NCBI GenBank assembly: GCA_010015805.1
Contig: ML978121.1
Location: 2,852,001 to 2,916,000 of the forward strand
Direction: 5' to 3'
Length of the DNA stretch: 64,000 nucleotides
From: Rhizodiscina lignyota
Lineage: Eukaryota
The notes below the pieces were generated by a model. The model made no database searches and was not told the DNA's origin. It saw only the letters and a program-made list of their open reading frames with translations. The translations under genes were made by a program, and so were the position numbers. This document shows, piece by piece, positions 44,251-45,602 of this stretch (position 1 is its first letter; each line of letters opens with the position of its first letter).

Positions 44251-45602
44251 ATGCACACTTCCAACGTCTTCTGTGTCCTGGCCCTTGCCTTGGGCTCCAT
44301 CGCCGCCCCTGTGGCAGAGCCGGAGGCCAAGGCTGTGCCGGATGACTATGGAAACTACGGAAAATACGCTGATTACGGTGAGCTCCAGCAGCAAAGCGCA
44401 TTGTGATAAGCCTGAGTCCTCTTCTAAAGTTCATTATAGGATCTTACTGTGCCCCTGCAGGCGGATATGCCAGCTGTGAGCTAACTACATCACGCTGGAG
44501 GCTTTCAAATAGGATTCAATTTCTCTAATTAGATTTTACAGATGGTAGCTATAAGAAACGCAGTGCCGACGCAGCCCCCGAAGCCGCTCCAGAGGCAAAA
44601 GCAGGCTACGGATCCTACTCACCGTACAAATCATACTCCCCATACGCTTCGTACGGTATGAGATCGATTCTCCTGTTCTCAATTTTAACGCTGCTAACAT
44701 GCTCTCTGTACTTTCCAGGCAGTTATGAGAAGCGCAATGCTGAAGCAGAGCCTGAAGCGGCTGCAGAAGCAAAACCAGGCTACGGATCATACTCACCATA
44801 CAAATCGTATTCGCCATACGCGTCGTACAGTATGAAGTCGGCCATCCCCGTACCAAGGCTTAACGCTGCTAATATGCTCTTTACGCTCACAGGCCACTAC
44901 AAGAAGCGCAGTGCTGAAGCAGAGGCCGAAGCAGAGGCCGACGCAGCTCCAGATGCCAACTCGTACGGAAGCTACCCGTCGTACAAATCATATGCGCCAT
45001 ACGCGTCATACGGTACGAAGCTGACCCTCTTATACCAAGGTTAAACATGGTTAATATTCTCTTTATTATTCACAGGCCACTATAAGCGCGCCGCTGAAGC
45101 AGAGCCCGAAGCGGCTCCTGAAGCGGCTCCGGAGGCAAAGCCTGGCTACGGAAGCTATGCACCGTATGCGACATATGGTACGAAGCCTATTCTCATGGTA
45201 CTCACTTTGGACGCTACTGACGTACTATGTGTACTTTCTAGGCACCTACAAGAAGCGTAGTGCAGAGGCCGAGCCTGAAGCTGCTCCCGAAGCTGCCCCT
45301 GAGGCGGCTCCAGATGCGAAACCTGAGGACTACAAGGAGTATGGATCCTACGCACCATATGCGACATATGGTAAAAAGCTCCTCTCCTTGTTTCAAGCTT
45401 AAAAGCCACTAATATTCTCTCTGCGCTCTCCAGGCGACTACGGAAATCCGCAATACAAGGACTGTAAGCCACTCTTCCTCAGCTTTTTTGAACTCAACCA
45501 TCGTACTAACGAAGACCAACAGATGGCAAATACGGCACATATGATAACTACAAGCGTGATGCGAAGGCTGAGCCGGCACCAGTGGCTGTTGCTGAGGAAT
45601 GA
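44251..45602 (+). CDS. Secreted Kex2-processed repeat protein (KEP), putative RiPP precursor, 282 aa, 9 exons: 44251-44377, 44440-44475, 44542-44655, 44719-44829, 44893-45012, 45076-45177, 45242-45370, 45434-45463, 45523-45602
   Basis: Manual splicing at eight 59-66 nt GT..AG phase-1 introns gives an open 849-nt CDS: signal peptide, then six [X-A/X-P spacer + Tyr-rich core + (K)KR] units. Confidence 0.92.
44542..45433 (+). repeat. Five tandem exon+intron repeat units (about 166-192 bp) within the precursor gene
   Basis: Exons share aagaagcgcagtgc..gaagcggctcc..tacggatcctac..ccatacgc.tc.tacg; introns 3-7 are 63-64 nt and mutually similar. Confidence 0.9.

Follow-up and report, generated by a model that had tools for sequence, protein, structure and literature searches.

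In the asperipin-2a pathway of Aspergillus flavus, a precursor (AprA) that carries a signal peptide and repeated cores cut at K-R sites is accompanied by a single adjoining UstYa-type oxidase (AprY) and, as described, by no tyrosinase (PMC6514808, PMC7329392). The product is reported to be bicyclic via ethers that join Tyr side chains to beta-carbons, and its formation needs AprY (PMC6514808). The core is aromatic-rich and contains Y-x-x-Y, and the ethers are said to form sequentially, with one Tyr serving as both donor and acceptor (PMC6514808, PMC7329392). Here we analyze a two-gene locus with these general features in a 64,000-nucleotide stretch of the genome of Rhizodiscina lignyota (Dothideomycetes, order Aulographales), positions 2,852,001 to 2,916,000 of contig ML978121.1 (GenBank assembly GCA_010015805.1); this whole stretch is referred to as the window. 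The locus consists of a gene encoding a Tyr-periodic precursor of the Kex2-processed repeat type and a divergently transcribed gene encoding a UstYa/DUF3328 oxidase. Comparison with related loci indicates that the pair is conserved among filamentous ascomycetes, and the peptide is very probably the substrate of the oxidase.

The asperipin core has six residues and one Y-x-x-Y, whereas the cores encoded in the window have 14–35 residues and 5–11 Tyr. The asperipin cluster also includes a reductase (AprR-like) and a transporter (AprT-like), neither of which is linked to the pair in the window, where the closest short-chain dehydrogenase lies at a distance of 21 kb and the closest transporter, PTR2, at about 36 kb. 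Further differences are the spacers, which in the window consist purely of Ste13-type dipeptides, and the conservation of the module over five fungal classes; in this comparison AprY is likened to the window's oxidase by description, not by sequence.

Ustiloxin and phomopsin also derive from Kex2 repeat precursors (UstA and PhomA) with adjoining DUF3328 proteins (UstYa, UstYb) that bear two HxxHC motifs, and Tyr is again the reactive residue (PMC7329392, PMC12048977). Their cores are only about four residues long, however, with one Tyr linked to Ile, and the pathways depend on a tyrosinase, on methyltransferases, and on several DUF3328 paralogues. A Pfam scan of 51 long open reading frames (ORFs) across the window (32 of at least 90 residues at 28–64 kb and 19 of at least 130 residues at 1–28 kb), which short or intron-rich genes could escape, detected a single UstYa and neither a tyrosinase nor a methyltransferase. 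Plant burpitides, including selanine A and the 17-membered arabipeptins, are likewise made from repeated cores, by copper BURP cyclases with a planar four-His site that form Tyr ether macrocycles, some of them Tyr-to-Tyr across Y-x-x-Y (PMC11253845; active-site comparison in PMC12435403). They differ in that BURP is a protein family unrelated to DUF3328, in that their hosts are plants, and in having at most two rings per core. Finally, yeast alpha-factor and other Ste13-signature Kex2 repeat proteins resemble the window's precursor in having K-R sites, spacers of X-Ala/X-Pro, and a short peptide in several copies, and probably in having a signal peptide (PMC6339444). However, the cores of these pheromone-type proteins are of Trp/Cys type and not Tyr-periodic, and the proteins are not accompanied by DUF3328 genes (PMC7329392).

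Under a broad definition, a dikaritin-type system comprises a repeat precursor and a DUF3328 oxidase with two HxxHC motifs (PMC12048977). Judged from its encoded proteins, the locus is such a system, with an ether cross-link in the product only predicted. It falls outside a narrower sense of the term (Ding et al., as quoted in PMC12048977), since a tyrosinase, a methyltransferase, and extra DUF3328 proteins were not found among the ORFs scanned; nor is it an asperipin-type cluster, for which a linked reductase or transporter is lacking.

The precursor gene occupies positions 44251–45602 (+) of the window. In our splice model its nine exons lie at 44251–44377, 44440–44475, 44542–44655, 44719–44829, 44893–45012, 45076–45177, 45242–45370, 45434–45463, and 45523–45602 (stop included). 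Splicing out the eight introns leaves an 849-nt open frame for a protein of 282 residues, 45 of them Tyr (16%). All eight introns are of the GT..AG type, 59–66 nt long, and in phase 1, and each contains a branch site resembling CTAAC, CTAAT, or CTGAC; in six of them the interrupted codon is the one after a Tyr, and in the other two it is a Tyr codon itself. Four of the eight (44656–44718, 44830–44892, 45013–45075, and 45371–45433) are exactly 63 nt long. A 171-residue ORF reads through introns 3 and 4, both of which are open in frame. The introns were duplicated along with the repeat unit and can still be aligned with one another.

The protein begins with a probable signal peptide (residues 1–18; 44251–44304), read by eye from a hydrophobic N-terminus that ends in small residues. 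Homologues have similarly hydrophobic N-termini, and AlphaFold places a helix at residues 2–14 of one of them. The remainder is organized as six units, each composed of a spacer, a core, and a K-R or K-K-R site, all on the (+) strand. The pro-region, or spacer 0 (44305–44340), contains six X-Ala/X-Pro dipeptides and precedes core 1 (44341–44552; 28 residues, 8 Tyr), which spans introns 1 and 2 and ends at K-K-R (44553–44561). A spacer of 14 residues built of X-A/X-P (44562–44603) leads to core 2 (44604–44729; 21 residues, 7 Tyr in an unbroken register), which spans intron 3 and is closed by K-R (44730–44735). Core 3 (44778–44900; 20 residues, 7 Tyr) spans intron 4, with its spacer at 44736–44777 and K-K-R at 44901–44909, and core 4 (44958–45083; 21 residues, 7 Tyr) spans intron 5, with its spacer at 44910–44957 and K-R at 45084–45089. 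The shortest, core 5 (45144–45249; 14 residues, 5 Tyr), spans intron 6 between a spacer at 45090–45143 and K-K-R at 45250–45258. Core 6 (45325–45551), with 35 residues and 11 Tyr, has one gap of 5 and takes in introns 7 and 8; its spacer is at 45259–45324 and its K-R at 45552–45557. An acidic C-terminal tail of 14 residues (45558–45599) completes the protein.

Seven spacer segments, of 12–22 residues and all of even length, have Ala or Pro at 54 of 54 second positions, where the end of a spacer is defined by the X-Ala/X-Pro rule itself. Even under this rule, it is notable that in every unit the dipeptide run extends exactly to the one or two residues that precede the Tyr array. X-Ala/X-Pro dipeptides after a Kex2 site are the signature that Ste13 dipeptidyl aminopeptidase removes, as in alpha-factor (PMC6339444). 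With six cores, a dibasic site after each, and repeat units that align as DNA, introns included, the precursor reads as a canonical Kex2-processed repeat protein with a Ste13 signature. The multi-core precursor proposed in the earlier note, made from the DNA alone, is thus borne out as one of Kex2 type with six K(K)R sites, and its six cores are identical, letter for letter, to those delimited here by the K(K)R sites and spacers.

All 45 Tyr lie inside these six cores. Successive Tyr are three residues apart in 37 of 44 gaps overall and in 37 of the 39 gaps within cores, which confirms the near-strict i/i+3 register of the earlier note; only two within-core gaps deviate, one of 7 in core 1 and one of 5 in core 6. 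Among 100,000 within-core residue shuffles, none reached 37 and the maximum was 18. When the entire window was translated in all six frames, runs of at least five Tyr in i/i+3 register were confined to the precursor gene (four sense runs and one antisense echo). The same note had the residues between the Tyr as variable, and some variation was found, but these positions are constrained: Tyr+1 holds one of G, A, S, and K (35 of 37 cases), and Tyr+2 holds mainly S, P, or T and never a bulky hydrophobic residue.

Pairwise comparison of cores 2–5 gave proportions of synonymous differences (pS) of 0.49–0.90 and of non-synonymous differences (pN) of 0.06–0.22, with pN/pS ratios of 0.11–0.40. The counts for cores 2 and 3, for example, are 8.0 synonymous differences and 3.0 non-synonymous ones. 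No aligned Tyr column is lost in cores 2–5, though TAC and TAT differ in 1–4 columns per pair. The combination of high pS, low pN, and retained Tyr columns argues that the repeats are old and under purifying selection.

The precursor protein itself was not recovered from databases. With the 171-residue read-through ORF as query, a word-indexed protein search found nothing, and a full HMMER search gave three matches, none of them Tyr-periodic, one being another Kex2-type repeat protein that matches through its spacers only; the best score in the ESM Atlas was 0.82, below the useful range. Its absence from the protein database results would suit a reading in which there is no gene here but a low-complexity repeat that appears open through an arbitrary choice of introns. 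We consider this extremely unlikely, because eight canonical phase-1 introns restore a single frame, synonymous sites have diverged almost to saturation with little change in amino acids, several genomes have annotated homologues, and one intron position is shared with a distant relative (locus L018, below). As the neighboring oxidase of the same genome is present in the database, the precursor probably was not called in the R. lignyota annotation.

The oxidase gene lies at 41810–42719 (−), with exons at 42719–42476 and 42420–41810 (stop included) separated by a 55-nt intron, and encodes 284 residues. The earlier note had a DUF3328 enzyme act on the cores, and this gene is indeed the immediate divergent neighbor of the precursor, 1.5 kb away across an intergenic region (42720–44250) that is presumed to hold a shared promoter. 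The protein matches Pfam UstYa (PF11807, DUF3328; E 1.2e-53), has an N-terminal hydrophobic membrane anchor, and carries the motifs H-H-L-H-C and H-V-S-H-C. Its second exon (202 residues queried) is 100% identical to a 284-residue NCBI protein of R. lignyota. The group to which it belongs is unusually conserved: we found 442 related proteins at E <= 1e-10, the best 120 of which are 58–75% identical over the query, and an alignment of 32 orthologues shows no change in either HxxHC motif. By their source names, the relatives come from genera of Dothideomycetes, Eurotiomycetes, Leotiomycetes, and Lecanoromycetes, among others.

The copper loading that the earlier note had assumed for this enzyme accords with the family now having been shown to consist of binuclear copper enzymes (PMC12435403). 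The characterized member CctR is described as a membrane-anchored, disulfide-linked homodimer in which HxxHC(x)nHxxHC forms a binuclear copper center, and as needing O2 and electrons (PMC12435403). The same paper cites another study for localization of DUF3328 proteins to Golgi, endosome, and vacuole membranes and proposes a lumenal catalytic domain, which would place the enzyme in the compartments through which Kex2-processed substrates travel.

Conservation of the pair was assessed in 80 metagenome loci encoding UstYa relatives, which were fetched by oxidase alignment and translated in six frames. They collapse to 65 non-redundant groups, of which the 25 with at least 2.5 kb upstream of the UstYa match were taken as informative. 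Runs of at least four Tyr in i/i+3 register occur in 26 loci and, apart from antisense echoes, are all upstream of the oxidase on the opposite strand. A strict test asked for small-residue runs upstream on the opposite strand, either two or more with at least three in-register Tyr each or one with at least four; it was passed by 20 of the 25 informative loci, with the runs 1.2–3.2 kb from the UstYa match; only two segments elsewhere in the related loci pass it. With four further loci, a Tyr-periodic gene stands in the same divergent position in 24 of 25. The runs of two of these (L044 and L058) include V, W, or L, a third (L064) has three 3-Tyr runs, and in the fourth (L028) a small gene carries five Y-K-x-Y pairs with P-P-A-G-G linkers between them. 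The sole exception is L016, in which no Tyr-periodic gene was found upstream of the oxidase. In an annotated genome, that of Xylographa soralifera, the precursor and the UstYa gene have consecutive locus tags.

Other neighbors are not retained. The sedolisin, Sec14-like, Pol-alpha-B, and GOST genes that flank the pair in the window were matched in none of the 80 related loci. In the 30 long related loci no gene other than the oxidase is common to all, although a subset of 6–10 loci shares further genes, and no tyrosinase, methyltransferase, or extra DUF3328 gene is a conserved neighbor. We therefore take the conserved unit, as far as these loci reveal it, to be just the precursor and the oxidase. 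This bears on the view that the peptides are secreted unmodified, as signals resembling pheromones, with the oxidase merely co-located or co-regulated. The processing signature is that of alpha-factor-type pheromones, which are themselves unmodified (PMC6339444). However, the divergent pairing persists in five classes and in 24 of the 25 informative loci although every other neighbor changes, which is hard to explain without a functional link, and we regard an unmodified product as very unlikely.

The peptide family was reached through the oxidase and its related loci, with a 150-residue intron-free stretch of the L018 precursor as query. This search returned 80 proteins at E <= 1, of which 69 were flagged as Tyr-periodic by a pattern test, a few of them probably by chance. 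Only one of the 80 has a precomputed Pfam domain, which looks like a chance match, and the ten members looked up are all annotated as hypothetical or uncharacterized. Members occur in Mollisia (Leotiomycetes), Venturia and Cladosporium (Dothideomycetes), Xylographa (Lecanoromycetes), Exophiala (Eurotiomycetes), and Sporothrix and Coniochaeta (Sordariomycetes), five classes of Pezizomycotina in all, with classes checked for five species. Several database proteins (P0127, P0128, and P0131–P0133) run from Y-G into translated intron. Gene models in the family are often mis-called at the phase-1 intron after a Tyr, and this may be why surveys missed it.

The usual family unit is a half-core of the form (Y-G-x)2-4 closed by Tyr, a six-residue Pro-rich linker, most commonly P-P-P-A-G-G, a second half-core, and K-R. 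Of the Tyr gaps, 645 are of 3, followed by 73 of 7, which correspond to the linker, and 52 of 2; Gly occupies Tyr+1 at 436 of the 602 positions listed. Conservation of the Tyr spacing in orthologues, on which the earlier note had made its reading depend, is evident in an alignment of 18 members, where the seven invariant columns are five Tyr, one Gly, and the start Met. Many members (P0134–P0200, e.g. P0135 residues 110–127, and L028 at 5149–5454, −) also have a conserved amphipathic tail of about ten residues after the last K-R, of the type A-x-D-F-V-K-x-L-W, which AlphaFold models as a helix and which the Rhizodiscina gene does not have. This tail could be an oxidase recognition element or a separate peptide. 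An AlphaFold2 model of one homologue, computed with the 18-sequence alignment, has a mean predicted local distance difference test (pLDDT) score of 53.8; apart from one helix at the signal peptide and one at the C-terminal tail it shows no confident fold, which is weak evidence either way.

These features bring into view an alternative in which the peptides would be assembled into an extracellular material (for example a wall, a spore coat, an adhesive, or a pigment matrix), with intermolecular Tyr cross-links or reactive Tyr derivatives made by the oxidase. With a (G/A-x-Y) period, an extended chain resembling polyproline II would carry its Tyr residues all on the same face. The composition, which is only Tyr and small or polar residues with Pro-rich linkers, fits such a role, as do the periodicity of Gly along with Tyr, the lack of a predicted fold, and a widespread module that, unlike a typical toxin cluster, has no conserved export or resistance partner among the loci. 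The family's likeness to the Tyr proteins of mussels and plant walls is compositional and is not used as support here. However, Kex2 and Ste13 cuts that give pieces of 14–35 residues follow the logic of diffusible peptides and not of a polymer, and runs of only three or four triplets are short for a stable helix. We judge a structural material quite unlikely.

Within the family, the Rhizodiscina gene is distinguished by the length of its registers. Core 1 alone keeps the six-residue linker, in the form x-A-P-A-G-G, which accounts for its Tyr gap of 7. Intron 1 coincides in position and phase with an intron of L018, in the Gly codon of Y-G^S-Y before an x-x-P-A-G-G-Y linker. The second halves of cores 2–5 (K-S-Y-S/A-P-Y-A-S/T-Y-G-x-Y) match the second half-cores of L022, L020, and P0126; a 10-residue piece of core 5 is identical in L022, and the window's read-through ORF matches P0126 by BLASTP with E 2e-06. 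As cores 2–5 lack the linker, their two halves run on as one register of 5–7 Tyr, whereas in most relatives the register is broken every 3–4 Tyr by the Pro-rich linker. The Rhizodiscina gene is thus an expanded, linker-less derivative of a widespread family, its long unbroken register a lineage-specific trait and not the family norm. In one related locus, L015 (3939–4076, −), the Tyr register runs unbroken over 46 residues, with Leu, Val, and Asp as fillers (Y-L-G-Y-G-V-Y-D-A-Y type). Long registers have therefore arisen more than once, with fillers that differ.

We propose that the products are secreted ribosomal peptides, matured in the secretory pathway, whose Tyr are oxidatively modified by the neighboring UstYa copper oxidase, a proposal to which, together with the ring chemistry set out below, we give an even chance. 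The signal peptide would bring the precursor into the endoplasmic reticulum, Kex2 would cleave the six K(K)R sites in the Golgi, and a Ste13-type dipeptidyl aminopeptidase would trim the X-Ala/X-Pro spacers. The outcome would be six peptides of 14–35 residues, five of which would end in Tyr once a Kex1-type carboxypeptidase had taken the basic residues. The lumenal oxidase, with its di-copper HxxHC-HxxHC site, would then act on the Y-x-x-Y units. That Y-x-x-Y is the minimal unit is suggested by L028, in which the pairs stand isolated.

The most likely bond would run from the phenol oxygen of a Tyr to the beta-carbon of the Tyr three residues upstream, because DUF3328 enzymes set the precedent on Kex2-type precursors and because asperipin-2a and selanine A are cross-linked in a comparable way. 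By our own atom count this would close a 17-membered ring, as in asperipin-2a and selanine A. The link in asperipin-2a is said to join Tyr6 to Tyr3, a numbering that accords with ring-size arithmetic. The earlier note had pointed to asperipin-2a as precedent for a Y-x-x-Y ring, and its ethers (PMC6514808) are now joined by those of selanine A, whose plant core ends in Y-P-S-Y and is reported to form a Leu-Tyr-Tyr di-ether with a macrocycle described as similar to that of asperipin-2a (PMC11253845). By this analogy, intramolecular Y-x-x-Y cross-links may form in the cores, the likelihood of which we place near the midpoint.

An alternative is that the oxidase modifies the cores but closes no rings, and instead hydroxylates Tyr at the beta-carbon, desaturates it, or halogenates it to leave linear, decorated Tyr-rich peptides. 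CctR, as characterized in vitro, is a hydroxylase that acts on a beta-carbon, and the activities listed for the family are hydroxylation, halogenation, macrocyclization, and isomerization (PMC12435403); moreover, the automatic names of some orthologues of the window's oxidase refer to a cyclochlorotine-cluster protein. Nevertheless, DUF3328 enzymes that act on Tyr-bearing Kex2-type precursors (in the ustiloxin, phomopsin, and asperipin-2a pathways) have, in the account given in PMC7329392, all been linked to Tyr ether cyclization. The strict i/i+3 spacing and the bare Y-x-x-Y pairs of L028 are also more easily explained if two Tyr must meet. Decoration without ring closure is in our view unlikely.

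If cross-links do form, the polycyclic Tyr ladder put forward in the earlier note is plausible by analogy with asperipin-2a and selanine A. A ladder requires each Tyr to be both donor and acceptor, as in the bicycles of those two compounds. In relatives with 3–4 Tyr per half-core, a few rings could form in each half; since most Rhizodiscina cores have lost the Pro-rich linker, up to six consecutive rings would be geometrically possible in them. We offer such fused, multi-ring products tentatively, as a possible but not the expected outcome.

Several points weigh against the proposed pathway. The chemistry of the cross-link is argued from analogy, and UstYa-family enzymes also hydroxylate, halogenate, and isomerize, so that cyclization is not the sole option (PMC12435403). 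No counterpart of the asperipin reductase or transporter is next to the pair. The period of the family is (G/A-x-Y)n and not Tyr alone, and as such it could also fit a three-residue structural repeat without intramolecular rings. The exon model of the precursor is drawn from sequence and homologues, with a signal peptide that was identified by eye. Lastly, the precursor itself was absent from both protein databases searched, and its homology to the family is suggested by synteny, motifs, a shared intron position, and the one BLASTP match.

The surroundings of the pair appear to be unrelated to it. On the precursor side, a sedolisin (S53) gene with a pro-kumamolisin activation domain (45939–47962, −; E 7e-42) converges on the precursor gene, with about 340 nt between its 3' end and the precursor stop. 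The sedolisin family includes tripeptidyl peptidases, and such an enzyme was suggestive as part of the module next to a substrate with a three-residue period. The three ORF pieces of the gene matched none of the 80 related loci, 17 of them non-redundant with at least 5 kb upstream, so its adjacency is probably coincidental. On the same side are genes for a GOST-type membrane protein and a tRNA thiolation protein, and on the other side a Sec14-like gene, DNA polymerase alpha subunit B, and Apc13.

More distant genes include a multicopper oxidase with three Cu-oxidase domains (15590–17143, +), 27 kb from the precursor, and a ferric reductase (28904–30019, −), 14 kb from it. The simplest reading is that both serve iron uptake, and nothing was found that ties them to the peptide. 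One ORF (55740–57195, −) has NPHP3_N/DUF7708, NACHT-type N-terminal modules, and looks like a typical fungal NLR-like gene. Another (58422–60962, +) has DUF7025 and a fungal AAA+ lid domain and looks like a typical orphan AAA gene.

We found no description of the Tyr-periodic family in the Kex2 repeat-protein surveys PMC7329392 (sections 6–7 and Table 2) and PMC6339444 (selected passages). The accession tables of PMC7329392, the largest such survey, contain no match for five family accessions or for the genus name. Full-text searches with family motif strings gave no relevant match; papers often show such motifs in figures alone, and a member may be tabulated by Nagano et al. 2016, who list more than 40 Aspergillus precursor types. 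What is new here, on the comparative sequence evidence, is the conserved pairing of precursor and oxidase, with 24 of 25 informative loci in agreement and annotated homologues in five classes.

Fungal UstYa/DUF3328 peptide pathways have so far comprised a handful of toxins with tiny cores and a patchy distribution. In contrast, the oxidase described here is about 58–75% identical across classes, is tied to one peptide type, and has no other conserved adjoining gene, while the most conserved feature of the peptide is a Y-x-x-Y spacing that matches a known ring size. Conservation of the pair in five classes without another partner gene suggests a common physiological role in filamentous ascomycetes and not a lineage-specific toxin. 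In its fullest form, which we regard as doubtful, our model is of a two-gene module ancestral to most filamentous ascomycetes that would make fused Tyr-O-C-beta paracyclophane ladders, each Tyr being donor and acceptor, for a conserved wall, spore-surface, or signaling role, with Rhizodiscina making the longest, of up to six rings. With two genes and substrates of a size suited to peptide synthesis, the module is a simple and widely available system for asking whether a DUF3328 copper enzyme works iteratively along a peptide, and it raises the question of what purpose a conserved, non-toxin-like fungal RiPP, a peptide made by the ribosome and modified after translation, may serve.

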